From a virus (taxonomy: Duplodnaviria > Heunggongvirae > Uroviricota > Caudoviricetes), in IMG/VR virus record IMGVR_UViG_3300014043_000003, positions 5,850 through 69,849 of that record: DNA of 64,000 nucleotides; one strand, 5' to 3'. This document shows, one piece after another, positions 13,186 to 64,000 of this stretch. Position 1 is the stretch's first letter. Every line of letters begins with the position of its first letter. The notes under the pieces are model-generated. The model saw nothing but the letters and a program-made list of their open reading frames with translations, did not search any database and was not told where the DNA came from. Position numbers and translations under genes: made by a program.

Positions 13186-13212
13186 TCTGATAGTTTATCC
13201 TCCGTGATAGTG

Positions 13213-13473
13213 TCAAGGCTCAGCAAGCCAGTACTCTTTCCAGTGTGTGCGCTCTCCGTTCTCGGAGACTTGGTAGATCATCTCATCGCGGATGGCGATC
13301 CCCCTCTTGTTTCGGAGATCCCAGATCCGGGCGCCGAGCCTCATAATCCCAAGCTCTTTCACGGCGCGCATTTGGCTGATCCTCCCGTGGCGAAGCATGT
13401 AATCGTACACCTTCGCCTCTTGCTTTGAATAACTCATTTTTGACCTTTGGCCTCCTTCTGTAAGCTCTCCCAC
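13213..13473 (-). CDS. Small winged-helix/HTH DNA-binding protein
   Basis: 86 aa; ..ISQMRAVKELGIMRLGARIWDLRNKRG. Confidence 0.4.
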   Translation of the reverse strand: MGELTEGGQRSKMSYSKQEAKVYDYMLRHGRISQMRAVKELGIMRLGARIWDLRNKRGIAIRDEMIYQVSENGERTHWKEYWLAEP

Positions 13474-13958: not shown

Positions 13959-14613
13959 CTCTTGTGGCTCCTCGGTCTACGTGTTTATGGAGGAAAATGT
14001 ACTCGCTTTTCTGTTGGTCCATATTGGCATAGAGCCAATTCGTGATCTGCTCCTCCGACATATGGTAACGGCGGACGCGCATCTCATATGGATACTTGCC
14101 TTCGGCAAGCTTCGCGTCCATACGCGCCTGCAGCTCATCTTCCTTGTAGTTGTTCTCCACCAGATAGAGGTCATAACCTCGGGCGTTGACGCCATTAAGA
14201 TGCCCCATATCCGTACAGTAGAATACCTTCTCCTTGTTGGGGAAAAATATCTTGTACGCATAGTTCTGGACATCGTGGAAAACAGGGACAGGGAGTACAC
14301 TGCACAGATTGTATGGCTGGAGCATTTTGTCGTAGAGCACATTGATCTGCGACTTTTTCACTCCAGTTGCAAGCAGCTTTTTTACCATCCACGGTCCGCA
14401 CCCGAATCGGAGGAGTGGCTTTTCGGTAGCCATCCTCCGAATGGTGCTCGGGAGGAAATGATCTTGGTGCTCATGGGTGATAAGAACGAGCTTCACCTTG
14501 TCCAAATATGGAGACACGAGCTTAAAGGACACGCCGCAGTCTACCATGACAGCGTCATTCAGAATGACACAGTTTCCGGTGCTTCCGGTCGCAAGTATAT
14601 TAACCTTGATCAT
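13939..14613 (-). CDS. MBL-fold metallo-hydrolase
   Basis: HEHQDH metal-binding motif. Confidence 0.65.
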   Translation of the reverse strand: MIKVNILATGSTGNCVILNDAVMVDCGVSFKLVSPYLDKVKLVLITHEHQDHFLPSTIRRMATEKPLLRFGCGPWMVKKLLATGVKKSQINVLYDKMLQPYNLCSVLPVPVFHDVQNYAYKIFFPNKEKVFYCTDMGHLNGVNARGYDLYLVENNYKEDELQARMDAKLAEGKYPYEMRVRRYHMSEEQITNWLYANMDQQKSEYIFLHKHVDRGATRDACQDP

Positions 14614-14635: not shown

Positions 14636-15631
14636 TTAGATATCGTCCAGGTTGATCTGGCCTGCGACATCGGAAAACTCCGATTCGATGATTTCAGAGT
14701 TGCCGCGGAACGTAGGAGGAGTGAACGGATCTTCAAATGTCGGCTCGTCCTCCATAATGATGTCGCCGGTGTCGGACACGCTGATGATCTGGTTATCCGT
14801 CTGAAACGCTCTCTGGAGGCCTTCCGTCTCAACGGAGATTGGACCGTAGTGGCCGATAAGCCGGCGCACGATCGTTTTGTTACCCATCGCGTCGAAGTCC
14901 TTGTACCAAAAGCTGGAGTATTTCCAGAGCTCGTCCTGGGGGATCTCGCCGTTCTGGATCTTGTGGAAGGCCTTTTTGGAGAACGCCGGGGAGAAGGTGT
15001 CGGCATAGTCGATCATCTCTTCCTTGGTCATATAGAGGGACTTCTGGAATCCGTTTTTCAGGAGAAACATGCCGTAGTAGCCGACGGTAGGCGTCATCTT
15101 GCGCTTGTAGGGATCTTTGATGATCTGGCTGTCCATCTCCTCCAGAAGGGGATTCCAACCCCGGAACTCGCCTTCCTTGATCTCCAGAATGACGATCTTC
15201 CTGTACATCTCGCTTCTGAGTGCGAGCTGCCAGTATCCGCGCCAGCCAAGGACGAACTCGGCCTTATCGCACTCCGGCACAAGGATTTCTCCGGTTTTGC
15301 GATCCCGCTTTTCCTTCTGGTGGAACGGCACCATATAGAAGAGACCGAGCTGCGGTGAAGGAGGGAGCTTCAAAGCCGCGCCATTGAGGGCGGCGCCGAT
15401 GACCGAGGCGGTCGTGCATTTCTGAATTGCAGGCGTCTTGTTGTGCGTGGTGATGATGGACGTGGTAAATTCCTTTGCCAGCTTCTCGTCGCCCAGCGTG
15501 TTAAGAATAGCCTGCTGGTAACGCTCAGTATTGACGATCTGAGAAAAGCTGAGTTTCTGGCTCTTTGCGGGCGCAGTAGTAGGCTGGGCAGCCTGCGGCG
15601 TAGGCGCCATCTGACGATTAGCAGTCCCCAT
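14636..15631 (-). CDS. recT: RecT-family single-strand annealing recombinase
   Basis: ..ASVIGAALNGAALKLPPSPQLGLFYMVPF.. and overall RecT-like layout. It lies adjacent to the MBL hydrolase and SSB. Confidence 0.65.
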   Translation of the reverse strand: MGTANRQMAPTPQAAQPTTAPAKSQKLSFSQIVNTERYQQAILNTLGDEKLAKEFTTSIITTHNKTPAIQKCTTASVIGAALNGAALKLPPSPQLGLFYMVPFHQKEKRDRKTGEILVPECDKAEFVLGWRGYWQLALRSEMYRKIVILEIKEGEFRGWNPLLEEMDSQIIKDPYKRKMTPTVGYYGMFLLKNGFQKSLYMTKEEMIDYADTFSPAFSKKAFHKIQNGEIPQDELWKYSSFWYKDFDAMGNKTIVRRLIGHYGPISVETEGLQRAFQTDNQIISVSDTGDIIMEDEPTFEDPFTPPTFRGNSEIIESEFSDVAGQINLDDI

Positions 15632-38114: not shown

Positions 38115-38547
38115 CTTGTTCCTCCAGATATTTTTCCCATGTCCGGCGCATCGGTGGATCTTTGGTCCAGCCCCATGTGCGCTCGTATTTTTCTGTCAGC
38201 TCCTTGGCATGAAGCGCAGCTTCGCGGGCGGTGTAGAAAACCTTCGTCCCAATATCAGACAGCTTGTGATAGCGCGGAGTAGGAGAACTGTAGTCTCCAT
38301 TTGGTATTGGGCCGCACATTACCAGTTCTACGTATCCACCCTCAAAATAGCTCTCAATAGGGGCAGATGTAACTACATACTCCAAACGCACCAAGACGCT
38401 GCCTTTTTCGTAATACCTGTTTTCATGTACATCCCACATCACGGTCCCGATCGGCGGCCTTTTCTGTCTTGCTCCCATACGCCCCCCTATCAGATAGCCA
38501 CGGCCTGCATCAGGGCGGCCATGTCTACGTAAGTAACCTGGCACCAC
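38089..38547 (-). CDS. Hypothetical protein
   Basis: 152-aa ORF; the start is uncertain. Confidence 0.35.
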   Translation of the reverse strand: MVPGYLRRHGRPDAGRGYLIGGRMGARQKRPPIGTVMWDVHENRYYEKGSVLVRLEYVVTSAPIESYFEGGYVELVMCGPIPNGDYSSPTPRYHKLSDIGTKVFYTAREAALHAKELTEKYERTWGWTKDPPMRRTWEKYLEEQDGRTEENH

Positions 38548-41177
38548 TCCGGCATGTTGGCCTTAACCACAGCCGTCGCCATCGGCGGGCACACCGCGTT
38601 CCCGCAGCGCGCGACCTGTGCCGTCTTCGGGTAATCCTTCCCCGTGTAATCCTTATCAATGACATAATCGTCTGGGAATCCCATTGCCGAGTACAGCTCC
38701 CGCGGTGTCAGCATTCTCATAGAAATATCGCTCAGGTAATACCATGTCCCACCGAGATTCAACAGTAGGATCTCATCATCAGCCAGCTTATAATCGCAAT
38801 ACTTGTTCAGGAGCGCGCGGATCTCCGGCCAGTGGCCCAAAGACTGTGTTCCCGGCGCGTATTTCTCGATGCGCACCGAGGCAACCGCAAACTCCCCGCC
38901 GCCGGCCGTGACCGTCTGCATAGGCTCCGCAGGGATTTGCCCAAGATTGTCGCCCTTGAATTTGACGACGTGAACAGCAGTCAGGGCCTCCCGGTCATGC
39001 CCGGTAACTGTGTGCATCGGCTCCCGAAGATCCAGAGGGACCCCGTTGCCGTAATACTCGGTCAGATGAGCAGCCGTCAGGCTGTATCTGTTGGAGGAAT
39101 CCACGGTCGGAAGAGGATCGCGCAGGCCGTTTGCTCTGACTGTTTCGGTCTGCTCCGTGTGGTACTGGATCAGGTTTGTTGCGACAAGGCCCTTCGTGCA
39201 TTTCTGGGTTATTGTCCCAAGCGGTGTATCTGTCCCAGCGACATGTCCGCCTCCAGAGTGGTTACACTCCGCAATGAACGGCTTACCGCTCTTGATGGTG
39301 AACTTATCCACGCCGCGGATGATTCTCCGCATAGTGTTGTTCGCAAGAGGCCGGACGGCGTTGACGCCGTATTTCTCCTTGAGTTGTTCTTTTGTATCGA
39401 ATACGGAGTACATCGGAACGCTCCAGTTGATGATCTCCGCGGCGGAGCGCCACGGCTTATACTTGCCGCTCTTGACCTCCTCGCTGTCTACAGGCGCGTG
39501 TGTCCGTTCAGGCCACACAACGGGCTTTCCGTCGCACCTTGCGACAAGGACGAAGCGCTTGCGCGTGGTAGGGGCGCCATAGTCGGCTGCCACCAGCTCA
39601 CGGTGTTCGACCTGATACCCCAGGTCTTGGAGTTGCTTGAGCCACTTTTTGAAGGTCTCCCCAGCCTTTTTCTTGATCGGTTTTCCCTTGCGGACGGGTC
39701 CCCAGGTCTGGAACTCCTCCACGTTTTCGAGGATGATGACGCGAGGCCGAACAGTACCGGCCCAGCGAAGCACGATCCATGCGAGGCCCCGGATATTCCG
39801 GTCCACGAGGGCGCTGCCCTTGGCCTTGGAGAAGTGCTTGCAGTTGTGGACGATGACTCCCTCAGCAATGTAGCTTTCGTCCTTATCGACGCTGATGTTA
39901 TAAAACTCTTTCTGATTGCCGGTGACGGTCGTCTCTTTGATCGGCGCCCAGAGGACGCCGTCTTCTGTGAAGGTCTGCCTATGTTTCTCCTCAACAGCGC
40001 GGCGCCACTTGACCCTGAATTGGTCTCTGGTGTTGACGACTCGGCCCTCTATTGGCCGTCCAGGAGCATCGGCGGCATACACCATAGGGGAAAACCCGAC
40101 CGTACCAGCAAGCGTTTTGAGGCCATACGCGAGCTTCTTGGAGACTGTAGTTGCCTCCACCAGTCCATCCTTCTCATAACCGTCCGCGCTGAGGTAGCCC
40201 GCGAGGAACGCTCCACGCAATCTCATACTGGAGCCGAACAGCCACGCCGGGATTTTCTTCTCTCCCGCCAAATGGCCGAAGTTCTCGCGGAGCCACTGGA
40301 CAAGGCTTCGATTGCTGCATGTAAACTGCCCGCCTGTCCTGACCTTCCTGAAATGCCATGCAAGCTCTCCATCCTTGCATCGCAGCCCCGTTCGCGGCCA
40401 CATATCCAGATTCTTCTGCAGATATTCGATGTCCTGCGGTCCGCAGCAGATGACAAGCTCACCACGCTTTTCGCTCAGGCGACTCCATCCATCACCGACG
40501 TATCTGCCGGCGAGCCACAAGAGGCGCTCGTCAATCGGAAGGACAGAGCACTTGCCGCTCGACTTTGTCATCAGGGGAATCGGGAGCTGTTCAATCTCGA
40601 TCGGCATTCCCCAATAATCCTTTGGCGTCAGCTCTTTGGCCTTCTTCCAGACCGGGGCACTGTATTGGTGATCGTAGTTTCTGCGGTCATTGTTCCACAC
40701 CTCCGAGCGCTCTCTGACATAGAACGGATGCCCGGTGCTGCACACGATTCCCGGATGCCCATAGCCTTTGACGATCATCTCATCTCTGAGCGTCTTCATT
40801 GTGGCCGTGACCTTTCTCCACCTGTTCTTGTGGGTGAGGACGCAGTCTCCCTCGCGGATCTCCTCAATGGGCTTGTAGCCATCTGTGGTGAGGATCAGCG
40901 TCCCCGCTTCAAAACAGTCAGGGGAAAACCACGCGAGGCCAACAGGCCGCCCAGCGCACACCTCCGTCGGGTCAACATCCCAAACCGAGGCTTGGAGGTG
41001 CAGCGTATAGGGGTGATTCGTCTTGTGCATGAGTATGGCCGCGGGATTGTGATTGATCGCTATGGTAACAGGGCGGCCGGTTGCCAGCTCTATCCCGGTA
41101 GAGGCACCGCCACCGCCGGCGAAGTTGTCCACGATAATCTCATCAAGGAGATTGATCTGTGCGTTTTCTCGGCTCAT
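38490..41177 (-). CDS. dcm: DNA (cytosine-5)-methyltransferase interrupted by an intein with a LAGLIDADG homing-endonuclease domain
   Basis: Motif I ..VDNFAGGGGAS, motif VI ..VIILENVEEF, motif X ..GNAVCPP. The catalytic PC motif is split: FSPD|C FEAGTLILTTDGYKPIEEIREGDCVLT (intein block A) ... IVCSTGHPFYV (block B) ... LWLAGRYVGDGWS and FLAGYLSADGY (two LAGLIDADG motifs) ... EGVIVHN|CKHFSKAKG (intein C-terminal HN plus the +1 Cys). Confidence 0.8.
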   Translation of the reverse strand: MSRENAQINLLDEIIVDNFAGGGGASTGIELATGRPVTIAINHNPAAILMHKTNHPYTLHLQASVWDVDPTEVCAGRPVGLAWFSPDCFEAGTLILTTDGYKPIEEIREGDCVLTHKNRWRKVTATMKTLRDEMIVKGYGHPGIVCSTGHPFYVRERSEVWNNDRRNYDHQYSAPVWKKAKELTPKDYWGMPIEIEQLPIPLMTKSSGKCSVLPIDERLLWLAGRYVGDGWSRLSEKRGELVICCGPQDIEYLQKNLDMWPRTGLRCKDGELAWHFRKVRTGGQFTCSNRSLVQWLRENFGHLAGEKKIPAWLFGSSMRLRGAFLAGYLSADGYEKDGLVEATTVSKKLAYGLKTLAGTVGFSPMVYAADAPGRPIEGRVVNTRDQFRVKWRRAVEEKHRQTFTEDGVLWAPIKETTVTGNQKEFYNISVDKDESYIAEGVIVHNCKHFSKAKGSALVDRNIRGLAWIVLRWAGTVRPRVIILENVEEFQTWGPVRKGKPIKKKAGETFKKWLKQLQDLGYQVEHRELVAADYGAPTTRKRFVLVARCDGKPVVWPERTHAPVDSEEVKSGKYKPWRSAAEIINWSVPMYSVFDTKEQLKEKYGVNAVRPLANNTMRRIIRGVDKFTIKSGKPFIAECNHSGGGHVAGTDTPLGTITQKCTKGLVATNLIQYHTEQTETVRANGLRDPLPTVDSSNRYSLTAAHLTEYYGNGVPLDLREPMHTVTGHDREALTAVHVVKFKGDNLGQIPAEPMQTVTAGGGEFAVASVRIEKYAPGTQSLGHWPEIRALLNKYCDYKLADDEILLLNLGGTWYYLSDISMRMLTPRELYSAMGFPDDYVIDKDYTGKDYPKTAQVARCGNAVCPPMATAVVKANMPEWCQVTYVDMAALMQAVAI
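39843..40916 (-). other. Intein (about 358 aa, Hint plus LAGLIDADG endonuclease) inserted at the catalytic Cys of the C5-methyltransferase
   Basis: Boundaries inferred from Cys1 (aa 88) through His-Asn (aa 444-445) with Cys +1. Coordinates are approximate. Confidence 0.65.
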
Positions 41178-51552: not shown

Positions 51553-53199
51553 TTAGATCGCCTCCAGGTCCTCTTCGTTCACCCAGCCCATGACATTGGA
51601 GCCTCCGAGAAGGATGCGCACCACGTAGTACGGGTGCTTCGCCCCGGCACTCACCTTGGAGACCTTCGCTTTTCCGGGAGTGCAGGTGCGGCTCCGGTCA
51701 GACTGTGCGCTCGTGTATTGTTTCTTCCCGTAAAACATGACCTTGTCTCCGGCCTTGAATCTGAGCTTCTTGACGGAGGGAGCGGACGGCTTGGCAGAGG
51801 CTACGGCTGGTTTAGCGGTGGCTTTCTCTGCGTCAGCCTCGCTCTTCATGGCCTTGAAGGTCTGAGTACCGAAGTAGCCGCACTCGCCAAGATTGCGGTC
51901 TTTCTGGTATTGCTTGAGAGCAGCGAGGGTGTTGTCGCCGAACTCGCCATCTACTCCGTCAGGTCCAAGATCGTATCCTGCGGCTTTCAGACGCTCCTGC
52001 ATGAGAGCGACCTGTTCTCCGGTGTCGCCGAGCTTCAGTATCATTTTGATGTTGCCGTTTACATTGACATTGATTGTGGTCTGCACAGGGCCGCCAGAGT
52101 TGCTTGCGCCGGCGGCAAGCTCCCACAGAGGACGGCCATATCCGGCGATGTAACCGCTATTGATGTCGTACTGACGGCGGGCTACGCGATCAGAGCTGTT
52201 GCCTTCGATGGTCGTGACGGTATTGCCATCAACGCTCTCGACAATTCCGGTATGATTGATCTGACCGGAATCGTCAAAAAAGAAAATCTGGTCGCCTGGC
52301 TGGGGATCGCGTGTCCAGCGGCCGGCGGCCTTGTAGTATTGCGCAGAGTAAGAGCATCCAGCTCCGGCACTGTTCTGTGGCTGGCAGAGCATACGCATTG
52401 CCAGGTCAGCGCCGAAACAGGTCTTGAACAGCCAGTCGTAGAAAACGTCGCACCATGCAAAGCCCTGTTTCTTTCCGTTGTAGAATGTAGGTTCGGCGTC
52501 CAGATCGCGGGCATACTTTGTAAAATTGCCGGAACCTGCATTGCCGTCCTTTACGTCAAGGGCCTGATTGTTGGCTTTCTCGCGGTAGTTTACCTCGCTC
52601 TTTGCCAAGGCGAGCACCTTTCCGATGGCGGCCTCGACACCGCTTGTCTGGCTTTGCTGCTGGGTGTCCTCTTCTTCATTGAGGGCGCCACTGGCTTCAA
52701 GCGCTTGAGCTTGTTTGAGCCATTCCTGGGCAAAGCCGTAGCGCTCGATCATGTTCTGCTCCTTCTCGTCAGGGTTTTCCCATTTGTCCAGCAAGAGCCA
52801 TGTGAGAGCGTATAGATCATGGCTTGTGCAGAGCTGCGCCCAGATGCCGGGGAACTTTTTGTAGAGCTCCCACAGAATATAGGCAGTCTGATTATCCAGA
52901 TCACCGATGGACTGCTTTCTGATCTGCGTGAAATTCCAGAAGGCTGTTTTGCGGTCAGAATGGGTAAGCTGTATGAGTCCATACCCGATTTCGTCAGTGC
53001 AGAAGTCTCCATAGGTTCCGTTGTCAACGGCCCAAGTGTAATCGTCGTCTGTCCAGCCGCAGCCGTCTTGGACGTTGTTGACTATGAAACGGCTTTCCTT
53101 TTGGATCTGTGCAAGTGAGGAACAGGCCCCCTCGATGGTCATTCCGGCCTTGCGAAATGCCCGGTACAGATAACCGGCAACGGTTTTCACTTCGCTCAT
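51553..53199 (-). CDS. Endolysin: N-terminal lysozyme-like domain, CHAP peptidase domain, PG_binding_1 domain and SH3-like C-terminus
   Basis: CHAP Cys...His (..FAWCDVFYDWL....INHTGIV), the PG-binding repeat LKLGDTGEQVALMQERLKAAGYDLGPDGVDGEFGDNTLAALKQYQ, and C-terminal ..KHPYYVVRILLGGSNVMGWV. Confidence 0.75.
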   Translation of the reverse strand: MSEVKTVAGYLYRAFRKAGMTIEGACSSLAQIQKESRFIVNNVQDGCGWTDDDYTWAVDNGTYGDFCTDEIGYGLIQLTHSDRKTAFWNFTQIRKQSIGDLDNQTAYILWELYKKFPGIWAQLCTSHDLYALTWLLLDKWENPDEKEQNMIERYGFAQEWLKQAQALEASGALNEEEDTQQQSQTSGVEAAIGKVLALAKSEVNYREKANNQALDVKDGNAGSGNFTKYARDLDAEPTFYNGKKQGFAWCDVFYDWLFKTCFGADLAMRMLCQPQNSAGAGCSYSAQYYKAAGRWTRDPQPGDQIFFFDDSGQINHTGIVESVDGNTVTTIEGNSSDRVARRQYDINSGYIAGYGRPLWELAAGASNSGGPVQTTINVNVNGNIKMILKLGDTGEQVALMQERLKAAGYDLGPDGVDGEFGDNTLAALKQYQKDRNLGECGYFGTQTFKAMKSEADAEKATAKPAVASAKPSAPSVKKLRFKAGDKVMFYGKKQYTSAQSDRSRTCTPGKAKVSKVSAGAKHPYYVVRILLGGSNVMGWVNEEDLEAI

Positions 53200-53798: not shown

Positions 53799-54146
53799 TC
53801 AGTTGCCGAACATGTTGTCGATGTCACTGGTGGATGCCGTGGTAACTCCAACAATGTCATCAAAAGTCTCCTGGCCTTCATCGTCTCCAATTGCCTCAAG
53901 AAGCTCCTTCATGGTTGGCTTGTTCAGAATTGCAGATGGACCGGACGTGGCGTTCCAGTCCGCTTGCACAACACCAGAAGCGCCAGGGATTCCACCATGA
54001 TCTTCAAAATAGATCGCAAGCTGTTCAAGGGAGTCATTTGCACGGCTCCCGGTCGGACTATCAAGATCGTCAGTTGAGGTGATTGCATCTGCTATTCTGT
54101 CGATGAGAATTGTTTTCCGATCAAACGGGCCGGAGTAATTAGACAT
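53799..54146 (-). CDS. Hypothetical acidic protein
   Basis: 115-aa ORF. Confidence 0.4.
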   Translation of the reverse strand: MSNYSGPFDRKTILIDRIADAITSTDDLDSPTGSRANDSLEQLAIYFEDHGGIPGASGVVQADWNATSGPSAILNKPTMKELLEAIGDDEGQETFDDIVGVTTASTSDIDNMFGN

Positions 54147-54230
54147 AAGTAGCTCACCTGCCTTGTTCAGAATTTACGGCGTAAATGAAGGAGACGGTCA
54201 CTGTTGGCCGTCTCCTTCATTGTCTGTTTG

Positions 54231-54395
54231 ATTATGATTCGGATAAAGGAAGGTCCTTGGCGTCCTCACCGTCGTTTTCCAGTACAACCGTATAGCTGTA
54301 CTGACTCTTGATGACGTTCTCCGGCTTCACATGGAAATAGTCAGCAAGAATCTGCTTTATGTCGTTCGGTTCTACTACTTTCGCGTTTTTCATCT
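54231..54395 (-). CDS. Small hypothetical protein (54 aa)
   Basis: MKNAKVVEPNDIKQILADYFHVKPENV... Not in the track. Confidence 0.3.
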
Positions 54396-54412
54396 ACCGC
54401 ACGTACCTATTA

Positions 54413-54544
54413 CTCGACGATGAGATCCTCGCGACCTCTCTCAATCAGAATCTCGCGAACCTGATCTTTCAGCTTCGCCGGAACCTGAGCGAAGGTCTTG
54501 TCTCCGCTGATGACGCGGTCAGCCCACAGTTTTGCAATCATGAT
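54413..54544 (-). CDS. Small phage protein (43 aa), tandem paralogue of 54556..54687
   Basis: MIAKLWADRVISGDKTFAQVPAKLKDQVREILIERGREDLIVE versus MLAFLWANQIILGKKTFAQVPAKLKAQVREILIDAGCEDLIDE. Confidence 0.4.
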
Positions 54545-54555
54545 TTTCTTCCTCC

Positions 54556-54687
54556 TTATTCGTCAATGAGGTCTTCGCAGCCGGCGTCGATCAGTATTTC
54601 TCTGACCTGTGCCTTCAGTTTTGCAGGAACCTGTGCGAAAGTCTTCTTCCCCAGAATGATCTGATTCGCCCAAAGAAATGCAAGCAT
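54556..54687 (-). CDS. Small phage protein (43 aa), tandem paralogue
   Basis: See the previous entry. The 63-aa track ORF starts upstream, but the paralogue alignment suggests the M at 54687. Confidence 0.4.
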   Translation of the reverse strand: MLAFLWANQIILGKKTFAQVPAKLKAQVREILIDAGCEDLIDE

Positions 54688-54736
54688 TTGTTTTTCCTCC
54701 TTAGTCAAAAGTAGATTGATGATTCCAAAGCGAAGA

Positions 54737-55042
54737 TTACTCAGCATAGAGAATCTCGCTCATTTCCAGGATGCATTCCGTGAGGACTTCGTTTTCCTCA
54801 CGGAGTTCGCGAAGCGTACGCTCAAGGTCGCTCTCCTCAACAAAAGTGAACCAGTAGCGTCCGTCGATGCTGGCGCAGCGCTGTACGCTTGCATTCACGT
54901 ATACGATACTGCCGTTGTCGGTCTCCACCGTCACCTGACTGAGATCGGCGGGGAAGGTCGGCTCCACAGGGACAATCAGACTGTCGCCGTTCTGCTCCGC
55001 CGTGAGGGTTGTGCCGTTTTTGAAGATGATTCTGGCTTCCAT
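54737..55042 (-). CDS. Hypothetical protein downstream of the reverse transcriptase
   Basis: Start taken at MEARIIFKNG. It overlaps the reverse-transcriptase 3' end by about 66 bp. Confidence 0.35.
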   Translation of the reverse strand: MEARIIFKNGTTLTAEQNGDSLIVPVEPTFPADLSQVTVETDNGSIVYVNASVQRCASIDGRYWFTFVEESDLERTLRELREENEVLTECILEMSEILYAE

Positions 55043-56202
55043 TTCAATTCCTTTCCGAAGAGCTCCATATACAGACTCTTCATGTGCTTGATTTGGTCTT
55101 TTGACATGATCCTTGAAAAATCGCCCATCCATGATCGAGCCGCCTGCTCAATCTCCGGATAGGCGATCTTTCCGTTGTCCATGAGACGCTTATACGCTTT
55201 CAGTTTCCTTCTTTCGCGGGTTACTGATTGTGGATTGATCCTCCGGACAACCTGCCCTGTTTCGGTAAGACTGTACTTGATCTGTAGAAACTTGTAAGTG
55301 CCGGAGAGCTTGACGATCCTTGTCTTGCTTTCATTGATAAACAGGCCAAGAGAATCCGCTTCGGCTTTCACCCCATTGATGATGGACTTCAATTCCTCAA
55401 GGTCTTTGCAGATGATATACATGTCATCCATATACCTGCCGTAATACTTGCATCTGCGGACAATCTTCACGTAATTATCAATGGGTGTCGGAAAGAAAAC
55501 GCCGATGTCCTGCGACACCTGATCCCCTATGTCTACAGACTTCGGCATGAATTTTTCTCCCGTCCGATTCGCCTTTGGGACGTTCTTGTAGTATTCAACA
55601 GAGTTGAATTTCCGATTCATGCAGGAGGCAAATTCATTGTCGCTCATATACGATACATCGACCTCGAACGTACGGAGTATCTTGTCCATAAACCATTGGG
55701 CTTCGCTGCTGATCTTCGGATACACCTGCTCTTTGATCTTGTCATGCTGGATGTTGTCATAGAACTTTGAAAAGTCAACGAAACCAACATATCCATCATT
55801 CGTGCGGTGTTTTAACCAGAAGTTATGCAAATCCTTCTCGAACATCATTCTTGTGAAGCTGATGCCCTTTCCCTTCTGACTGGCACCGTTGTTATGAATC
55901 AGATACGGATGCAGCGCCGATGTAAGCTCGCCGTCACATAACGCATGGCGAACGACCCTGTCACGGACCTTTACGCCATGGATGTGCCTGATCTTCCCTC
56001 TCTCATTCAGAGTAAACTCGACGCCCGGAAGGGTTTCGTAGGTGCGAGATTCCATCTCATGTTTCAGCTTGACAATCTCCGACAGAAAATCCCTTTCAAA
56101 AAGCTGAGGCTCTTCTTTCCATGCGCTCCCCTTCATGGATGCAAGAAATGAATCGTAGAGCAAATTCAGATCACACAGTCTATTCTCGCTCATATTTCGC
56201 AT
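54976..56202 (-). CDS. Diversity-generating retroelement reverse transcriptase
   Basis: RT motifs ..YGRYMDDMYII.. (YxDD) and ..VDIGDQVSQDIGVFF.. (the DGR-specific I/VGxxxSQ). Strong GGAGGT ribosome-binding site. It lies directly 3' (in the minus direction) of the template repeat. Confidence 0.85.
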   Translation of the reverse strand: MRNMSENRLCDLNLLYDSFLASMKGSAWKEEPQLFERDFLSEIVKLKHEMESRTYETLPGVEFTLNERGKIRHIHGVKVRDRVVRHALCDGELTSALHPYLIHNNGASQKGKGISFTRMMFEKDLHNFWLKHRTNDGYVGFVDFSKFYDNIQHDKIKEQVYPKISSEAQWFMDKILRTFEVDVSYMSDNEFASCMNRKFNSVEYYKNVPKANRTGEKFMPKSVDIGDQVSQDIGVFFPTPIDNYVKIVRRCKYYGRYMDDMYIICKDLEELKSIINGVKAEADSLGLFINESKTRIVKLSGTYKFLQIKYSLTETGQVVRRINPQSVTRERRKLKAYKRLMDNGKIAYPEIEQAARSWMGDFSRIMSKDQIKHMKSLYMELFGKELKWKPESSSKTAQPSRRSRTATV

Positions 56203-56382
56203 ACCTCCCTCCGCGGGTTAAGCCCCGGATATTAGTTCGTCGTAACTCACTACATGAAGCAAACCGGGTATGCGCGGCTCCGCATTGCTGCGCTGTCTTT
56301 TAGCCTCCTTATCGGAGGACATGGATAATCTTTCCTTTCGGTAAAACGCCGGCCTATCTTATAGAGGACTTACTATGCGTTT

Positions 56383-56505
56383 CCAAAATCCGGACGGACG
56401 CCGATCCTTGAGTTCGAAGCGTTGTTGTAGTTGCAGTTGCCGTTGTTGTTCACATTGGCGAAGTTCGACGCGGAGACGACATCACGCAGCCACCAGTTGG
56501 CGCGT
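56383..56505 (-). repeat. DGR template repeat (TR)
   Basis: About 123 bp homologous to the 3' ends of both target genes, with a constant offset (894 bp to VR1, 1955 bp to VR2) and no indels. Nearly every TR/VR mismatch lies at a + strand T (an A on the sense strand) of the TR. The spurious ORF 56373..56651 is its translation. Confidence 0.85.
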
Positions 56506-56529
56506 TCAAAGATTACCCAAATATTAGAA

Positions 56530-57204
56530 TCATTGCTTTGTGACTTCCGCTTCCTTGCTGACCAGCAAACTTTTCTCAACCTTGGCGATTTTGCGGATAA
56601 TGTCTGCAATATTCTCGAAGATTGTGATAATGTGCTGATCCATGGAGTCAAGGATTTTTCCGGTCTTTCTGTCCTTTCGCGGCTTTATGAGCTTATTATC
56701 CGCAGAACGGACGCCCTTGTAGAGGGCGATCTGCTTATCTATCAGCTCCGCAAACCTCTCGTACTTGTTGATGTCGACCGGAAGCGTCCTGATGACGTAG
56801 TTGATCTCCTGCTTCAGAGAATAGCAAAGGCCAATCGCCTTGTTCATGTGCCATCTGCGCACAAGGAACTCCATGAGTCTCGCCGGTGTCTCAGATGGAA
56901 AAATAGAATTGCCGGACGTAAATTCTTCTTCGATCCTTCTGAGCAAATCCAGTAGGGCGCGGGCTTCCTCGTCGATAAACCATTTGTCAAATGCGTCCAG
57001 CTTTTGCTGTTTCAACGCTATAGTCTCAAGCGACTTCGGATTGTTCACGTTTGCCGCCTTGAGCTGGTCAATCTTCATCTGATATTTCTCTTTGCAGAAG
57101 CCGAAATCATTCAGAATGAGGCCGGTCACTTCATTCCGCAAGTAATAGAAATGATGGGACGCCTCGAAGCGTGATTCCTTCCTTCGGCCTTTCGGTACAC
57201 TCAT
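56530..57204 (-). CDS. DGR accessory protein candidate (in the Avd position; 224 aa, not obviously an Avd fold)
   Basis: It occupies the canonical position between the target genes and the TR. No recognisable Avd-like four-helix-bundle sequence, so the call rests on synteny only. Confidence 0.4.
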   Translation of the reverse strand: MSVPKGRRKESRFEASHHFYYLRNEVTGLILNDFGFCKEKYQMKIDQLKAANVNNPKSLETIALKQQKLDAFDKWFIDEEARALLDLLRRIEEEFTSGNSIFPSETPARLMEFLVRRWHMNKAIGLCYSLKQEINYVIRTLPVDINKYERFAELIDKQIALYKGVRSADNKLIKPRKDRKTGKILDSMDQHIITIFENIADIIRKIAKVEKSLLVSKEAEVTKQ

Positions 57205-57263
57205 GTGTGATTCTCCTTATCTCCTTGAATCCCGCCCACAAGGGGCGGAGATTCAAGATACGC

Positions 57264-58238
57264 TTACGCTTTGATACCGAAAGCCGGACGGACGCCGATC
57301 CATGAACCCGAAGCGCTGTTGTAGTCGCAGGCGCCGTGGTTGTTCACATAGGCGAAGTCCGACGCGGAGACGACATCACGCAGCCACCAGACGGCGCGGT
57401 TGCAGATGTACTGCGGCGCCAGCTTGAACAGAGGCAGTTGTCCCTTGTCTATCGTGTAGGCATTGGGAATGTTCGTGCCATGCACAACGTTGGAGAACAC
57501 ACGGCATCCATAGACCATCTGTTCATTCATCAGGTCAACTGCGCTGTCATACCAGGCGCCTGCGTTCTGATACCCGCCGGTCGTGGAGTTCGCAAAATAC
57601 TCGCGGTGAGTAAGGATGTGAGAACTTCCAAAGGCTTCTTCGATCATACCGACGGCCGTTGCCTTGCCGACATTGTCGTTGTTGCCGGTGTAGAAGTCGG
57701 ACCCGATGTACGCGCCTGTCGTGATATTCGTCTTGTTCATCGGCGCGTTGGAGCCGAGGTTCGTATCCGGGACGATAACCGCGTGGTGGGTAGTGCATTC
57801 GGTGTCGCCGCATCTGAGCCAGTAGTCAAAGGCGGCAATACGCCAGTTCTTGCCGCCGATCACCCAGTAGTCGCCGATAAAAAGATCCTCAAACGTACCG
57901 GCGCTGATCGCCGCATACTGATCGGCGGTAACGGATGTGCCAAGGTTCTTTCCACGGAACAGGCTGTTGTGAAATCCGGCGTTATTATAGTTTCCGGCGA
58001 CATTGCGAATCCTTGCTATGTCTGCAACATGCTCATTGATCGCACCGGTCAGGTTCTGGGCCGTGGTCAGGAGCGCAGCAGTACCAACGCGGGCCGCAAT
58101 TGCCTTGTTCTCGACAGGGTTCGTCGAGGTCGTGGAGAGTGCGCTGTCGATTGTGTCGATCACGCCGGTTGCCAGGTCGGTGTATGTGCCGTCCTGATTC
58201 CGTTTCTTGACCGCGCTGGGATAAAGGGTTACAGGCAT
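57264..58238 (-). CDS. DGR target protein 1: tail-fibre/receptor-binding protein with a C-terminal C-type-lectin-like variable region
   Basis: The C-terminus ..NRAVWWLRDVVSASDFAYVNNHGACDYNSASGSWIGVRPAFGIKA is encoded by VR1. It is a paralogue of 58325..59326. Confidence 0.8.
   Translation of the reverse strand: MPVTLYPSAVKKRNQDGTYTDLATGVIDTIDSALSTTSTNPVENKAIAARVGTAALLTTAQNLTGAINEHVADIARIRNVAGNYNNAGFHNSLFRGKNLGTSVTADQYAAISAGTFEDLFIGDYWVIGGKNWRIAAFDYWLRCGDTECTTHHAVIVPDTNLGSNAPMNKTNITTGAYIGSDFYTGNNDNVGKATAVGMIEEAFGSSHILTHREYFANSTTGGYQNAGAWYDSAVDLMNEQMVYGCRVFSNVVHGTNIPNAYTIDKGQLPLFKLAPQYICNRAVWWLRDVVSASDFAYVNNHGACDYNSASGSWIGVRPAFGIKA
57277..57399 (-). repeat. DGR variable repeat 1 (VR1)
   Basis: Aligned to the TR with substitutions only where the TR sense strand has A. 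An identical 18-bp GC-rich segment (CCGGACGGACGCCGATCC on the + strand) lies at the sense 3' end (IMH candidate). A conserved hairpin CCCGCCC-ACAA-GGGGCGG lies at 57231-57248, just 3' of the gene. Confidence 0.8.
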
Positions 58239-58324
58239 AAATTATCCCTCCTATTCTAATTCTATTTATGCCCCATGAAGTAGTCTGAATCCCCGCCCAC
58301 AAGGGGCGGTGATTTAAGATTCGC

Positions 58325-59326
58325 TTACGCTTTGATTCCGAAAGCCGGACGGACGCCGATCCCGGAGTACGAAGCGTAGTTGAAGTAGCAGCGGCCGTAG
58401 TTGTCCACAAGGGCGAAGCGCGACGCGGAGACGACATCACGCAGCCACCAGACGGCGCGGTTGCAGATGAACGAAGGCGCGAGCGCAAACAGCGGGAGCT
58501 GCCCTTTGTCGATGGTATAGGCATTCGGAATGTTCGTTCCGTGCATTGCATTGGAATAGACGCGACAGCCGTACACCATCTGCTCGTTCATCATATCCAC
58601 CGTGGAGTCGTACCACGCTCCAGCGCTTTGATAGCCGTTGGTCACAGCATTGGCGAAGTATTCTCTATGGCTGAGAATATGCGCAGCGCCGAAGGCACCC
58701 TCGGCCATTGCGATGCAGTCAGCCTTGGCAGTGTTCTCAGTTTCATTGGCATTGACGCCGGTGTAGAAGCCGCTGCCGACATACGCGCCGGTCGTGATGT
58801 TCGAGGTGTTCATGTAATGAGTGGTACTGCCATCGGCAACTTTCAGGTTGGAGTCTGGAACGATCACGGCATGATGCTTTGTGCATTCGGTATCTCCGCA
58901 TCTATACCAGTAATCAAAGGCCGCAATGCGCCAGTTAATGGAGTTGATCGTCCAATAGTCTCCAATGAACAGGTCTTCAAAGGTTCCGGCGTTGATTGCC
59001 GCCCACTGTTCCGCCGTAATGGTGGAGCCGAGGCTTTTCCCCCTGAAAATGCTATTATGGAAGCCTGCGGTGTCACTGTTGCCGAAGATCGCCATGAGCT
59101 CCTCAATGTCCGCTTCCTGCTCATTGATCGCTTCAGCAAGGGTTTGAGCTGTGGTATCCAGGGCCGCCGTGCCGAGCCTGTTTGTGATAACAAGGTTCTG
59201 AACGGGACTCGAACTGATTGTAGAGAACACATCGTCAACTTCGGTTACGACGGCAGGGGTAACGTCGGTGTACGTTCCGTTGTCGTTGCGTTTCTTTACA
59301 ACGCCGGGATAAAGAGTCAAAGGCAT
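58325..59326 (-). CDS. DGR target protein 2: paralogous tail-fibre/receptor-binding protein with a C-terminal variable region
   Basis: The C-terminus ..NRAVWWLRDVVSASRFALVDNYGRCYFNYASYSGIGVRPAFGIKA is encoded by VR2. Confidence 0.8.
   Translation of the reverse strand: MPLTLYPGVVKKRNDNGTYTDVTPAVVTEVDDVFSTISSSPVQNLVITNRLGTAALDTTAQTLAEAINEQEADIEELMAIFGNSDTAGFHNSIFRGKSLGSTITAEQWAAINAGTFEDLFIGDYWTINSINWRIAAFDYWYRCGDTECTKHHAVIVPDSNLKVADGSTTHYMNTSNITTGAYVGSGFYTGVNANETENTAKADCIAMAEGAFGAAHILSHREYFANAVTNGYQSAGAWYDSTVDMMNEQMVYGCRVYSNAMHGTNIPNAYTIDKGQLPLFALAPSFICNRAVWWLRDVVSASRFALVDNYGRCYFNYASYSGIGVRPAFGIKA
58338..58460 (-). repeat. DGR variable repeat 2 (VR2)
   Basis: Same relationship to the TR as VR1, with a conserved downstream hairpin CCCCGCCC-ACAA-GGGGCGG at 58291-58309. 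Confidence 0.8.
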
Positions 59327-59372
59327 AAATTATCCCTCCTTATTTCTCCATCTATGCCTTATGGATGATGTT

Positions 59373-61427
59373 TCAGGACGTACCTTCAAGGGCAGCCACT
59401 TTCGCTTCGAGCGTAGCGACTCTGTCTGCAAGAGCGAGGAGCTCCGCGTAAGTTGCCATCTCGATACCTGCCCCGGTGGTCTTGTTGATCCAGACCTGAT
59501 TGGTTGTAGCGGTCGGCTGCGTGTCAGACACGATGACCTCGCTCTCAAGCTGGTTAAGAGCGATAGCGACAGCTTTGTTCTGGACCGGGTTTGTGGACGA
59601 AGTGGACAAGGCGGAATCAACAACATTTCGTGTAGCTCCGGCCTCAATCCCGAGAAGTTTCGCCTTTTCCTCGCTTGTGTAGTCGCTGCTGGAGAGTCCC
59701 TTCCCGGAGATGGCCGTGACCTTCGTGTTGACCTCTGCCTGGAGAGCTTGCAGCTCCGCGTAGGTAGCGACAGAAGACGCCGATCCGAGTGTTTCGGCCA
59801 CCCAGAGCTGGTTCGTTGTCGCCGTGGGCTGTATGTCAGAGACAATGAGCTCACTGTCGAGCACGTCAAGGGCGGCCTTGACGACCTTGTTCTGGACAGG
59901 ATTCTCCGATGTGGTAGACAGGGAAGAATCCACCACGGTCTTGTTGGCCTCCGCTTCGATACCGGACAGCTTGTTCTTCTCTGTGGTCGTGTAGTTATTG
60001 TCCGTATGGACATAGCTGGCATCGACCGGGAAGTTGCTGTCGTTCGTGAGGTCAGAGGTCTTCGTCGGGACAGTGACATCGACCGCCTTGTTCGTGACCG
60101 TGAGCGCGGTCCCGTTGACCTTGACGGCTTCAATGACGTTCACATCCGCGCCGGAATCCACGCCGTCCAGCTTGCTCTTGTCAGATGCGCTCATGAGTCC
60201 GGCGGCCGAGGTAGTCGCTTCGGAATACGTGGTGTCCGATCCGGGGATGCCGAGTCCGGTGATGTCGCTCTTCTCGACAGCGGTTGCGGCGGTGACGTGT
60301 CCCTCGCTGTTGGTCGTGATCTTATACAGGCCGCTGGCAAAGGCCGATCCCTTGTTGGTTACGCCGTGGGCGTAGGCAGAAGCGCCGTAATCGCCGCGGA
60401 ACGCGGTGGAAGACGTGGTGCCAAGAGCGAGGTCTGACGCGATGAATACGTAAGCCGAACCGCTCCAGCGGTAGCACTTGTTCGTGGATGTATCGAGATA
60501 AATCTTGCCACTCTCGCCGGTAGCTGGAAAAGCAGACTGGCCGTTATACTCCACAATGTCGTCCACGTAGGACGGGAGCTGGCTGGACGGAACCTTGCCG
60601 TTCGCATCGAGCTCCGCAAGACCGTTCGCCGCACCCTTGAGGCTTGTGTCGAGCTTGCCGCTGATGTCCTGATGGGCGGTGATAACGGTGCCGAGATCCA
60701 CGACGCCGCTTGTGCCCTTGGAAGCTCCGTTCATGGTGATGCCGGTGATCGTGCCGGTATTGCCTGTGTAGCCCTTGTTCTCTATGGCCGCGTCCAGCAC
60801 AGCCGCGGAGATCAGCTTTGCCTCTGTAGCTGTCCCTGCCTCGGCCTCGGCTTCGGTCATCCCGGAATAGGTGGTGTCGGTCTCAGGCGGCGTATATCCG
60901 AGGGCGTCTGTGACGTTCTTCTTGGTCAGCTCGCCGCGGATATCTGCGGAGGACTTGTCCTCTACATTGCCAAGGCCGATATTGCCCTTGGTGATGTTGA
61001 CGTTTCCGGTCCTATAGCTTTCTTCGGCGCTGCCTTTGACGCCTGTGATGCTGTTGACCTGAGCGCCGCTGGCGATACCTGCGAGCTTGTCCTTTTCTAC
61101 CGTGGTGTAGTTGTTGTCTGTGTGGACATAGTTTGCGTCCGACACATAGTTGCCGTCGTTCGTCAGGTCGCTCAGCTTGGTGGGCACCGTGACGTTAACG
61201 GACTTCGACGCGACAGGCAAAGCGGTTCCATTGACGGCGACAGACTCAATGACGTTGACCTGAGCGCCGCTGGCGATATTGCCGAGCTTGGTCTTCTCAT
61301 CTGTCGTGTAGTCGTTTGTGGACAAGCCCTTTCCGGACTCTTTATCCACCTTGCCGTTCAGCAGAGTCTTGATCTTCCCGAGGAAATACCCGAGTTTCTC
61401 AAGGTCCACTAAATTGTGAAATGCCAT
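59373..61427 (-). CDS. Tail fibre protein with repeated K-L-x-G-I-x-x-G-A-Q-V-N modules
   Basis: 684 aa with repeated ..KLGNIASGAQVNVIESV.. and ..KLAGIASGAQVNSITGV.. units. Gly/Ser/Thr/Asn-rich, fibre-like. Confidence 0.65.
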   Translation of the reverse strand: MAFHNLVDLEKLGYFLGKIKTLLNGKVDKESGKGLSTNDYTTDEKTKLGNIASGAQVNVIESVAVNGTALPVASKSVNVTVPTKLSDLTNDGNYVSDANYVHTDNNYTTVEKDKLAGIASGAQVNSITGVKGSAEESYRTGNVNITKGNIGLGNVEDKSSADIRGELTKKNVTDALGYTPPETDTTYSGMTEAEAEAGTATEAKLISAAVLDAAIENKGYTGNTGTITGITMNGASKGTSGVVDLGTVITAHQDISGKLDTSLKGAANGLAELDANGKVPSSQLPSYVDDIVEYNGQSAFPATGESGKIYLDTSTNKCYRWSGSAYVFIASDLALGTTSSTAFRGDYGASAYAHGVTNKGSAFASGLYKITTNSEGHVTAATAVEKSDITGLGIPGSDTTYSEATTSAAGLMSASDKSKLDGVDSGADVNVIEAVKVNGTALTVTNKAVDVTVPTKTSDLTNDSNFPVDASYVHTDNNYTTTEKNKLSGIEAEANKTVVDSSLSTTSENPVQNKVVKAALDVLDSELIVSDIQPTATTNQLWVAETLGSASSVATYAELQALQAEVNTKVTAISGKGLSSSDYTSEEKAKLLGIEAGATRNVVDSALSTSSTNPVQNKAVAIALNQLESEVIVSDTQPTATTNQVWINKTTGAGIEMATYAELLALADRVATLEAKVAALEGTS

Positions 61428-61504
61428 AGTTCATCCCCCCTGAAAAAAGTGAGGGCACATACCCCAAAATGGGGTATGCACCCTCGCGGATGTTTGATAA
61501 ATGC

Positions 61505-64000
61505 TCATGAATTGAACAAAGCGTCGATCTGGGCCTCCGTCACGATCGACACATCGTCATTTGTAACGAATTGCGTAGTATCAATGGCATTGCCCATGAG
61601 CTTCCAGTCTTCGCCGTCCCAGAAGTATGTGCTTTGCTCGTCATCGACGTACCAGACATCGCCGCTCTTGTTTCCAGAAGCGGGGAGATCCGTATAGGAC
61701 GTCTTTGAACCCTTGATTTCAAAGGCGGAGGCGACAGCCGCAGTGATCGCATTAGAGACAAACTCCGTTGTGGCAATCTGCGTCGTGTTCGTGCCGGATG
61801 CAGCCGTCGGGGCTGTGGGAGTGCCTGTAAATGCGGGGCTTGCGAGAGGCGCTCTTGAGGTGTCCGTCGGGTGGATGTGGTCTGCTCTGGCAAAGTTCTG
61901 GGAGGTGCCGGGGGATGCTACACCGTCCACGACGGGGTTGGCATCTGACAGATCGGCGTGGGTGACGAAATCTGAGTCGTTCGTTATATCTGAGGTCTTC
62001 GTCGGGACCGTGATATCCACAGATTTGTTGACCACAGACTGGGCAGTGCCGTTGACCTTCACGCTTTCGATCACATTGACCTGAGATCCGGCTTCGATCG
62101 CGTCGAGCTTTGCTTTCAGAGGATCGGTGAAGTCGTTCTTGGACAGGCCGTAGCCCGTGACCTTATCCACTTTCCCGGATTCGAGCTGGCCGATCTTCTC
62201 GCCCACACTCCCGGTTGTATAAGCAGTTCCGGTCTGATACCCAATGTCCCCGGCTCCGATTTCGACCGCAGCCACGTCCAGAGCATGGCCGTTTACAGTG
62301 GTAGTCTTGTTGACCTTATCGTCGCCGAGGTTTGCCACGTTCTGCTTGAGCGTTTTCACCTCAGCGCCCACGGTGCCGCTGTTGTAGGTCTCACTGTCGG
62401 AGTATCCGATATCCCCAGGACCCACAACGACGTTCGCGCTCAATGCGTGTCCGTTGACCGTGGTGGTCTTGTCGGCCTTCGTACTGCCGAGGTTATCCGA
62501 AGCATCGGAGAGGCTTTTCACCTTGGCTCCGATGGACCCGGTCTGATACTCAGCACCATTGTTGTAGCTGATATCTCCTGGGCCGACAACAACATCGTCT
62601 GTCAGCGCGTGGCCGTTTACCTTTGTGGATTTATCTGCCTTTGTGCTGCCAAGAGTGTCTGCAGTATCGGAAAGACTCTTGACCTTCGCCCCGAGGCTTC
62701 CAGCCTGGTAATTCGTGCTGTTGCTGTAAGCAATGTCCTCCGGGCCGACGACAACATCATCCGCAAGGGAATGACCGTTTACGGTGGTATCCTTGTCGGC
62801 CTTGGTGTCTCCGAGGCTTTCTGAGGCGACAGTCAGATCCTTCACCTGTTTGCCAAGGGTGTTGGCATCATAGGAGGCGGTCCTGTCAAAAGCGATGTCC
62901 CCGGAGCCTACAACGACATTATCGCTGAGGGCATGCCCGTTGACAGTCGTGACTTTATCGACCTTGGTGTCTTCGAGCGTATCGGCCTTATCTGAAAGGC
63001 TCTTCACCTTTGTTCCGAGAGATCCGGACTGGTACTCGCCGCTGTCGCTATACGCTATATCCCCCGGTCCTACAACGACATTTGCACTCAGGGCATGACC
63101 ATTCACGGTCGTGGTCTTATCTGCTTTTACGTCGTTGAGGTTCTCCGAAGCGGTGGTCAGGTCCTTGACCTGCTTGCCCAAGCTGTTGTTCTCGTAAGTC
63201 TCCGCTTGGCTGAAGGCGATGTCCCCGGCGCCGACGGTCACATCTGATTCAAGAGAATGACCGTTGACCTTTGTTGCCGCATCAGCCTTGACGCTTCTGA
63301 GGATGTTAAGGGCATTTCCGATAGTCCCGGCGTCAAACTGCTGTGTAGGCTCATAGCTGATGTCGTTCGGGGTAATGGTTACATTGCTGGACAGCGCATG
63401 CCCATTTACCGTTGTGGTCTTGTCCACCTTGACGGACATGTCAGGCTGGAAATTCTCTTCGCTGACATAGGCGGGATAGCCGTCTGCGGAGCTTGCCGCA
63501 AAGTACTCGAAGATCCCGGCGGCGAAGCTGGCAAACTCCACCTTGTAGGAAGTCACACCCGCGGAGGTCTCGGTCTCTACCCTATAGCAGAGGCAGATCG
63601 ACTCAAGGCCCCCGTTGGATTCCTGGTAATAAAGGACGCCGTTGGATATGGCGTCCTTGCATTCCTGCCATGTGAGGTTGAGCTTTGCCGGCTCTCCTGA
63701 CTCCTGATCGAAAATCAGACGGGCAATCGTTATTTTGGGGGCATCAGGGTCCAGTCTGCCGAGCTTTGTCTTCTCCTCCAGGGTGAAATTCTCGTCAGAG
63801 AGGGCTTTTCCCATGACCTTGTCCACTTTCATGGACAGGGCATCAAAGATGGCTCTGTTCTCCACGGGATTCGTGGAGCTGTCGGAGATCTGACGGTCGA
63901 TTACGGTATTGGTGGCGTTCGCCTCGATACCGGCCAGCTTGTTTTTCTCCGGTGTGGTGTAGTCGTTCGTCGAAAGGCCTTTTCCTGAGACCTTGTTGAC
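61505..64000 (-). CDS. Tail fibre protein with about nine tandem 47-aa repeats; 5' end beyond the window
   Basis: Repeats of ..TTVNGHALSxNVVVGPGDIAYSxSxxYQxGSLGxKVKSLSDxxDxLxxTKADK.. The track ORF starts at M 63865, but the same frame stays open upstream to the window end, with tail-fibre-like sequence (KGLSTNDYTTPEKNKLAGIEANATNTV..). Confidence 0.65.
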   Translation of the reverse strand, partial: VNKVSGKGLSTNDYTTPEKNKLAGIEANATNTVIDRQISDSSTNPVENRAIFDALSMKVDKVMGKALSDENFTLEEKTKLGRLDPDAPKITIARLIFDQESGEPAKLNLTWQECKDAISNGVLYYQESNGGLESICLCYRVETETSAGVTSYKVEFASFAAGIFEYFAASSADGYPAYVSEENFQPDMSVKVDKTTTVNGHALSSNVTITPNDISYEPTQQFDAGTIGNALNILRSVKADAATKVNGHSLESDVTVGAGDIAFSQAETYENNSLGKQVKDLTTASENLNDVKADKTTTVNGHALSANVVVGPGDIAYSDSGEYQSGSLGTKVKSLSDKADTLEDTKVDKVTTVNGHALSDNVVVGSGDIAFDRTASYDANTLGKQVKDLTVASESLGDTKADKDTTVNGHSLADDVVVGPEDIAYSNSTNYQAGSLGAKVKSLSDTADTLGSTKADKSTKVNGHALTDDVVVGPGDISYNNGAEYQTGSIGAKVKSLSDASDNLGSTKADKTTTVNGHALSANVVVGPGDIGYSDSETYNSGTVGAEVKTLKQNVANLGDDKVNKTTTVNGHALDVAAVEIGAGDIGYQTGTAYTTGSVGEKIGQLESGKVDKVTGYGLSKNDFTDPLKAKLDAIEAGSQVNVIESVKVNGTAQSVVNKSVDITVPTKTSDITNDSDFVTHADLSDANPVVDGVASPGTSQNFARADHIHPTDTSRAPLASPAFTGTPTAPTAASGTNTTQIATTEFVSNAITAAVASAFEIKGSKTSYTDLPASGNKSGDVWYVDDEQSTYFWDGEDWKLMGNAIDTTQFVTNDDVSIVTEAQIDALFNS

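Follow-up and report, generated by a model that had tools for sequence, protein, structure and literature searches.

The stretch of DNA analyzed here (the window) comprises 64,000 nt of IMG/VR virus record IMGVR_UViG_3300014043_000003 (Caudoviricetes; positions 5,850 to 69,849 of that record), the source scaffold of which is 140 kb long and was obtained from a wolf-gut metagenome. The minus strand of the window carries a cassette with the parts of a diversity-generating retroelement (DGR), transcribed in the order target gene 2, target gene 1, accessory gene, template repeat (TR), a 180-nt non-coding spacer and reverse transcriptase (RT) gene; each target gene ends in a variable region (VR1 and VR2). 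An earlier reading of this DNA, made without database searches (the sequence-only reading), had proposed a minus-strand order of target gene(s), accessory open reading frame (ORF), TR and RT, and every element was located at the position given there. Coordinates are collected in Table 1.

Table 1. Features of the DGR cassette and of the genes directly upstream of it, in window coordinates. Sp, spacer; IMH*, TR-side counterpart of the initiation of mutagenic homing (IMH) site; pI, isoelectric point; cDNA, complementary DNA.
Feature	Position	Strand	Remarks
Two tail-fiber genes directly upstream of the targets (context)	59373-63865	minus	684 and 786 aa
Target gene 2	58325-59326	minus	333 aa; VR2 58336-58461, core 58345-58453
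GC-rich hairpin after VR2	58288-58314	minus	CCGCCC-CTTGT-GGGCGG core, identical to that of the VR1 hairpin
Target gene 1	57264-58238	minus	324 aa; VR1 57275-57400, core 57284-57392
GC-rich hairpin after VR1	57224-57257	minus	CCGCCC-CTTGT-GGGCGG core plus 8-bp outer stem; putative cruciform target-recognition element
Accessory gene	56530-57204	minus	224 aa, pI 9.4; predicted elongated helical bundle, Avd-like by fold only
TR-bracketing 11-bp duplex, 5' strand	56508-56518	minus	GGGTAATCTTT; between the TR and the stop codon of the accessory gene
TR	56381-56506	minus	Mutagenic core 56390-56498 (27 adenines, 11 AAY codons); IMH*-like end 56381-56389
Structured Sp RNA, TR-RT gap	56203-56389	minus	Nested stem-loops 56345-56381, distal helices 56222-56292; RNAalifold covariation
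Sp strand CGAAA pairing with the TR 3' end (56384-56388, TTTTG)	56336-56340	minus	Covarying helix 1; putative template:primer duplex
TR-bracketing 11-bp duplex, 3' strand	56323-56333	minus	Pairs with 56508-56518; putative cDNA stop duplex
RT gene	54976-56202	minus	408 aa; YMDD at residues 257-260, IGDQVSQ at 225-231

The RT was matched to Pfam RVT_1 (1e-12) and phrog_1423 (5e-54), and its best PDB match was the Bordetella DGR RT (bRT; 8ub7_A). In an alignment with Brt (302 aa, 24% identity, E 6e-13) the motifs were in register, YMDD falling on YMDD and IGDQVSQ on the IGSLTSQ of bRT; both motifs, which had been noted in the sequence-only reading, are present and fit the DGR-type combination of [ILV]GxxxSQ plus YxDD. 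NCBIfam models of group II, Drt, retron and Abi RTs scored 18-55 bits against cut-offs of 200-550. With bRT as the closest solved relative and the other models far under their cut-offs, the enzyme was assigned to the DGR type and not to the retrons or group II elements, as had been claimed. The 64-kb window was searched for a second RT and none was found. A 131-aa ORF (54737-55132, minus strand) shares 157 nt with the 3' end of the RT gene and is not among the public gene calls on that strand.

Three repeat copies in register were returned by a repeat finder (56369-56520, 57263-57414 and 58324-58475). The TR could be aligned, with no gaps, to the 3' end of each target ORF, where the VR lies (offsets +894 and +1955), which bears out the gapless alignment at constant distance described earlier. 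Over 56381-56506, VR1 differed from the TR at 17 positions, 15 of them TR adenines (hypergeometric P 5e-9), and VR2 at 19 positions, 18 of them TR adenines (P 3e-12); the differences thus fall essentially all at TR adenines, again as proposed. Also in agreement with the sequence were the plus-strand TR and VR strings and the C-terminal peptide that had been quoted. The TR limits given at that time (56383-56505) were correct as to location and off by 2-7 nt at the ends.

Within a 109-nt core (56390-56498) VR2 carried 16 mismatches at adenines and none elsewhere, and VR1 carried 12 at adenines and one elsewhere. The exception in VR1 (C56412 to T) is a synonymous substitution at a third codon position. 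When the two VRs were compared with each other, 17 of their 18 differences were at TR adenines, from which it follows that both copies were rewritten independently after duplication. Adenines of the TR occupy codon positions 1 or 2 in 29 of 32 cases. The 27 that are variable are spread across 16 codons, of which 11 are AAY and unable to mutate to stop, and the TR adenines allow roughly 10^15 peptides per target. No further VR was found on either strand of the window, the next-best placement of the TR giving at least 40 non-adenine mismatches. The TR is spanned by a 92-aa ORF (56373-56651, minus strand; see also 10086-10340 of locus L001) that overlaps the end of the accessory gene and exists because the TR copies the 3' end of a coding sequence.

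Related loci were collected by an IMG/VR search with the accessory alignment (36 loci), and they bear on the boundaries of the repeats. On the 3' side a GC-rich 13-mer (56390-56402) is common to the TR and both VRs, and 3' of it the mismatches are A to C at 56389 and T to C at 56385 in both VRs and A to T at 56382 in VR1 only. The difference at 56389 was seen in nearly all related loci (VR GGCTTTCG, TR GGATTTYG). Because it recurs across relatives, the mismatches at 56389, 56385 and 56382 were read as the difference between IMH and IMH* and not as mutagenesis. On the 5' side TR/VR homology ends at about 56505/56506.

A GC-rich hairpin (CCGCCC-CTTGT-GGGCGG) lies 20-30 nt past the end of each VR, the copy after VR1 having the additional outer stem. 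Of the 30 related loci scanned, 29 had a comparable GC-rich hairpin 3' of the VR, and none had one 3' of the TR. Their stems varied with compensatory changes (CCGGCC/GGCCGG, CCACCC/GGGTGG, CTGCCCC/GGGGCAG and others), and the loop was CTYGT in most related loci. Experiments on phage BPP-1 showed that the corresponding hairpin needs its stem structure, is free in stem sequence and is sequence-specific in its loop, which is 4 nt long with the consensus GRNA (PMC3240598); covarying stems around a mostly constant loop agree with this rule. The hairpins were also considered as intrinsic terminators, and this was rejected, as no T-run follows and a terminator scan called neither.

The spacer was folded with RNAalifold from an alignment of 26 related sequences, which gave 40 predicted pairs, 27 of them with compensatory changes. 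Pairing was retained in 96% of alignment cells versus at most 49% when partners were slid, and the observed values were attained in 0 of 500 shuffles. Helix 1 (56384-56388 with 56336-56340) consists of 5 pairs, 3 of which changed on both sides, and was 99% paired. The 11-bp duplex that brackets the TR (alignment of 25 loci) was paired in 98.9% of cells versus at most 64% after sliding, with 7 of its 11 pairs changed on both sides. Helix 1 and this duplex fall exactly at the two limits of TR/VR homology. RNAalifold also called a local hairpin (H4) of 3 invariant pairs, but its bases are those used by the long-range duplex, which probably takes its place. An Rfam scan of 54000-60000 (E up to 1) returned no match. 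A TR:Sp duplex and a stop duplex have been described for BPP-1 (bioRxiv 10.1101/2023.10.23.563531); by analogy, helix 1 would be the template:primer duplex, with the priming adenosine at or adjoining 56336, and the 11-bp duplex would be the cDNA stop duplex.

Targets 1 and 2 are 67% identical over their full length. The predicted target model is C-type-lectin-like, probably of the DUF6273 (PF19789) type, and its fold likenesses were a long series of C-type lectin domains plus FGE-like proteins, in line with the C-type-lectin or FGE-like fold earlier suggested for the variable segment. DUF6273 has already been reported as a C-type-lectin-like DGR target domain in gut phages (PMC10743442, PMC11792537). 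Judged by gene position and fold, the targets are presumably tail-fiber or receptor-binding proteins. Of the proteins encoded directly upstream, that of 786 aa matched PHROG tail-fiber families and that of 684 aa matched PHROG families of unknown function and one annotated peptidase only; position and a motif in common suggest the tail-fiber label of the latter. The motif S-x-S-x-NPV-x-NK was found in the N-terminal part of target 1 and, in two copies, in the tail-fiber protein encoded upstream (58102-58143, 59572-59613 and 59884-59925), and the same motif (repeat family D5) is also present in target 2. It may be a common attachment or collar motif tying the targets to the fiber.

Searches with the accessory protein alone and with a 34-sequence profile returned nothing meaningful from Pfam, NCBIfam, PHROGs or PDB sequences, and none of the 34 family members tested matched PF05635 (Pfam). 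The best matches of its predicted fold were four-helix bundles of the Avd family. The protein is basic, as are Avd proteins (mean pI 9.5; PMC5758913), and its gene is located between target and TR. Avd itself forms a pentamer. Since fold, charge and position resemble those of Avd and the sequence does not, it was called Avd-like and not a demonstrable member of the Avd sequence family. Its own family is large (350 close clusters; at least 699 representatives at 50% identity).

A megablast search of the cassette against 50,697 phage records returned no match. Among the IMG/VR loci, all 36 had the accessory gene flanked in the same order by a target homolog and/or the RT. A scan detected a TR with a single A-only VR (7-24 adenine and 0-3 non-adenine mismatches) in 30 of them. 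The closest relative (L041) has an accessory protein 66% identical to the one here and one target (P0122) that is 80% identical to target 2. Two targets and two clean VRs were found in a more distant phage (L042/L043, 162-kb contig). The target paralogs of this phage and of L042/L043 are more alike within a phage than between phages, which suggests independent duplications or concerted evolution. At a further locus (L018, 3404-5969) three tandem target paralogs were found, of which only the one farthest from the TR has a clean VR; the middle one resembles a decayed VR (13 adenine and 20 non-adenine mismatches), and the one nearest the TR has essentially no similarity to it (65 mismatches in 122 nt).

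Variation at adenine sites was observed directly among these relatives. Between loci L026 and L028, 11 of 5676 positions were found to differ, every one a VR site opposite a TR adenine. Between L026 and L031 there were 28 differences in 10298 positions, of which 11 belong to the VR and 16 form a second tight cluster. These VR-site differences indicate that the DGR lineage is active in nature. The second cluster belongs to a 126-kb phage that was recovered from different samples (L026, 10807-10895 and 12019-12441; also L027 and L031) and that has a second RT-like gene, 30% identical; the cluster is probably the VR of a second DGR. Loci L042 and L043 differ at 33 positions (6615-6935 of L042) in 10-kb stretches that are otherwise identical, all of them at the 3' end of the tail-fiber gene upstream of the targets. 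The differences are mostly spaced in multiples of 3 and resemble a recombination patch, not DGR action. L042 also has an IS605-family OrfB/TnpB gene (13179-14318) between the DGR and the endolysin gene.

The cassette is very probably a complete DGR of a large gut phage, serving two tandem paralogous targets. The sequence-only reading had come to the same view, a complete DGR with one TR for two targets, and it is sustained by the A-specific pattern in two VRs, the AAY-rich TR, the DGR-type RT, the hairpins and the covarying RNA. By analogy with BPP-1, an RNA would be made that begins shortly before the TR and extends through the spacer, and the 11-bp duplex (56508-56518/56323-56333) would seal the TR on its 5' side. 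The TR 3' end (56384-56388) would pair with the spacer (56336-56340), and a spacer adenosine would serve as the primer, with cDNA starting near 56389/56390. Acting with the basic helical-bundle accessory protein, the RT would copy the TR faithfully except at its 27 adenines. The cDNA would replace the homologous 3' end of either target gene, guided by the GC-rich block in common, by the VR-specific 3' sequence and by the GC-rich hairpin after each VR. Up to ~10^15 variants of a surface patch on the C-type-lectin-like (probably DUF6273) domain could result in each of two proteins, with a putative role in receptor binding.

Several observations weigh against this account or parts of it. Three assemblies of this phage from one sample (SRR948119; L002, L003 and the window) are identical across the cassette. 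The VRs of L042 and L043 are identical despite 33 nearby differences, which means that turnover need not be rapid. In sequence the accessory protein bears no similarity to Avd (hhalign against BPP-1 Avd, probability 0.4%), and a Foldseek search of its model against BFVD (viral models) gave no match at E <=0.001, an 'Avd-like protein' appearing at E 1.0; the four-helix bundle is a common fold. The hairpin loop here, CTYGT, is 5 nt long, unlike the GRNA loop of BPP-1, which has 4 nt and was shown there to be critical (PMC3240598).

The cassette might be a fossil, a once-active DGR that no longer diversifies either target and in which the VR patterns are relics of past homing. Such a history would fit the identical assemblies, which offer no within-population variation to examine, and the lack of VR differences between L042 and L043, and the decayed VR in the neighboring paralog of L018 shows that decay occurs in the family. 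Decayed copies gather many non-adenine mismatches, however, and the VR cores here have 0 and 1; moreover, the RT and accessory ORFs are full length with the catalytic motifs intact, as are both hairpins and all RNA helices. Loss of activity was accordingly judged improbable. Another possibility is that only one paralog is a live target and the other is a diverged duplicate still resembling the TR. VR1, with its one non-adenine change and fewer adenine changes (12 versus 16), would be the candidate for the latter, only one of three paralogs in L018 is a clean VR, and a single VR was found in all related lineages examined but L042/L043. The non-adenine change in VR1 is synonymous, however; neither VR has lost the GC-rich block, the hairpin or the VR-specific 3' sequence; and the concentration of VR1-VR2 differences at TR adenines (17 of 18) speaks for independent rewriting of both. 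That only one target is live is therefore unlikely. Ordinary paralogy, in which a gene fragment was copied beside an unrelated retron, group II intron or defense RT and the adenine bias arose by chance, could draw on the weak sub-threshold NCBIfam matches to group II, Drt and retron models. Those scores are far under the 200-550 cut-offs and the best solved relative is a DGR RT, the bias has P values of 5e-9 and 3e-12, and the A-only pattern was found again in 30 independent loci, by which this explanation is effectively refuted.

The cassette was compared with known systems. With that of BPP-1 (mtd-avd-TR-brt) it shares the order tail fiber, target, accessory, TR, RT, small ORFs and endolysin/lysis genes; the A-specific TR/VR differences; the C-terminal VR in a C-type lectin fold and the GC-rich block and hairpin after the VR (PMC3240598); and the TR:Sp and TR-bracketing duplexes (10.1101/2023.10.23.563531), to which roles are given here by analogy. 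BPP-1 has one target, of the Mtd type, whereas two, probably of the DUF6273 type, are present here. The RT here has a ~40-aa insertion in addition to its low identity (24%), the accessory protein has 224 aa versus the 128 aa of Avd and no sequence similarity to it, and the hairpin loops differ in sequence and length, as given above.

DUF6273 C-type-lectin-like targets with a C-terminal VR are known from gut phages nd4 and nd12 and in Faecalibacterium phages Lelie, Roos and Pioen, and in some phages with such DGRs one TR serves two targets (PMC10743442, PMC11792537). The RTs of this group are 24-28% identical to the one here, and their accessory proteins belong to a different family. In nd4 and nd12 the targets are two different proteins (tentaclin, with an N-terminal VR, and a small protein with a C-terminal VR), unlike the 67%-identical tandem paralogs described here. 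The nearest isolate was Acutalibacter phage Fontainebleau (ON453893), which has the same target-accessory-TR-RT order (RT 45%, accessory 29% and target 47% identical). Its TR and VR differ by 16 adenine and 3 non-adenine mismatches over 94 nt (14 and 2 in a stricter scan). It differs in having a single target and VR, a 39-kb genome and a 184-aa accessory protein. In its record the DGR is unannotated, and the TR is annotated as a coding sequence (hypothetical protein WAK78963.1, the counterpart of the 92-aa ORF). Bacterial DGRs with several VRs (Treponema denticola, Legionella and others) likewise combine one TR and RT with several paralogous targets, but these are surface lipoproteins often dispersed in the genome, in contrast to the adjacent targets of a phage cassette.

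VR-VR-TR-RT is the second commonest cassette layout (95 versus 512 for VR-TR-RT; PMC11661182), and two targets occur in about 13% of cassettes (PMC10743442). As two-target cassettes and DUF6273 gut-phage targets are both already published, the element belongs to a known kind of system. What is modestly new is the long accessory protein without a sequence link to Avd, the covariation-backed architecture of the RNA in this lineage and the hairpin loop of 5 nt. Tentatively, and with doubt as the stronger side, the accessory protein might represent a distinct, unclassified class of DGR accessory (an elongated bundle with an extra C-terminal helix) that would mark, together with the ~190-nt covarying TR-flanking RNA and the CTYGT loop, a separate mechanistic sublineage of phage DGRs in which tandem target duplication may have occurred more than once.

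The phage carrying the cassette is large (about 140-160 kb), uncultured and from a carnivore gut, and the 140-kb contig would fit a large phage that infects a Gram-positive gut host. Almost all long ORFs of the window are on the minus strand. Genes identified include those for a transposase (3617-5089), a DnaD-like protein (11300-12271), a RecT-like protein (14636-15631), an 895-aa methyltransferase fusion (38490-41177) and a CHAP/peptidoglycan-binding endolysin (51553-53199). No tRNA genes were found in the window.

These findings leave the present understanding of DGRs unchanged and add another putative case in which a single template diversifies two binding proteins of a phage; their practical value lies in the by-products. 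Standard profiles miss the accessory family, so that automated DGR annotation may label such cassettes 'Avd-less'. The CTYGT loop is a variant open to target-recognition testing. The RNA model, with its putative priming duplex, nested stem-loops and putative stop duplex, could seed a covariance model for DGR finding, and would carry the mechanism worked out for Bordetella over to a distant phage lineage of Firmicutes type.

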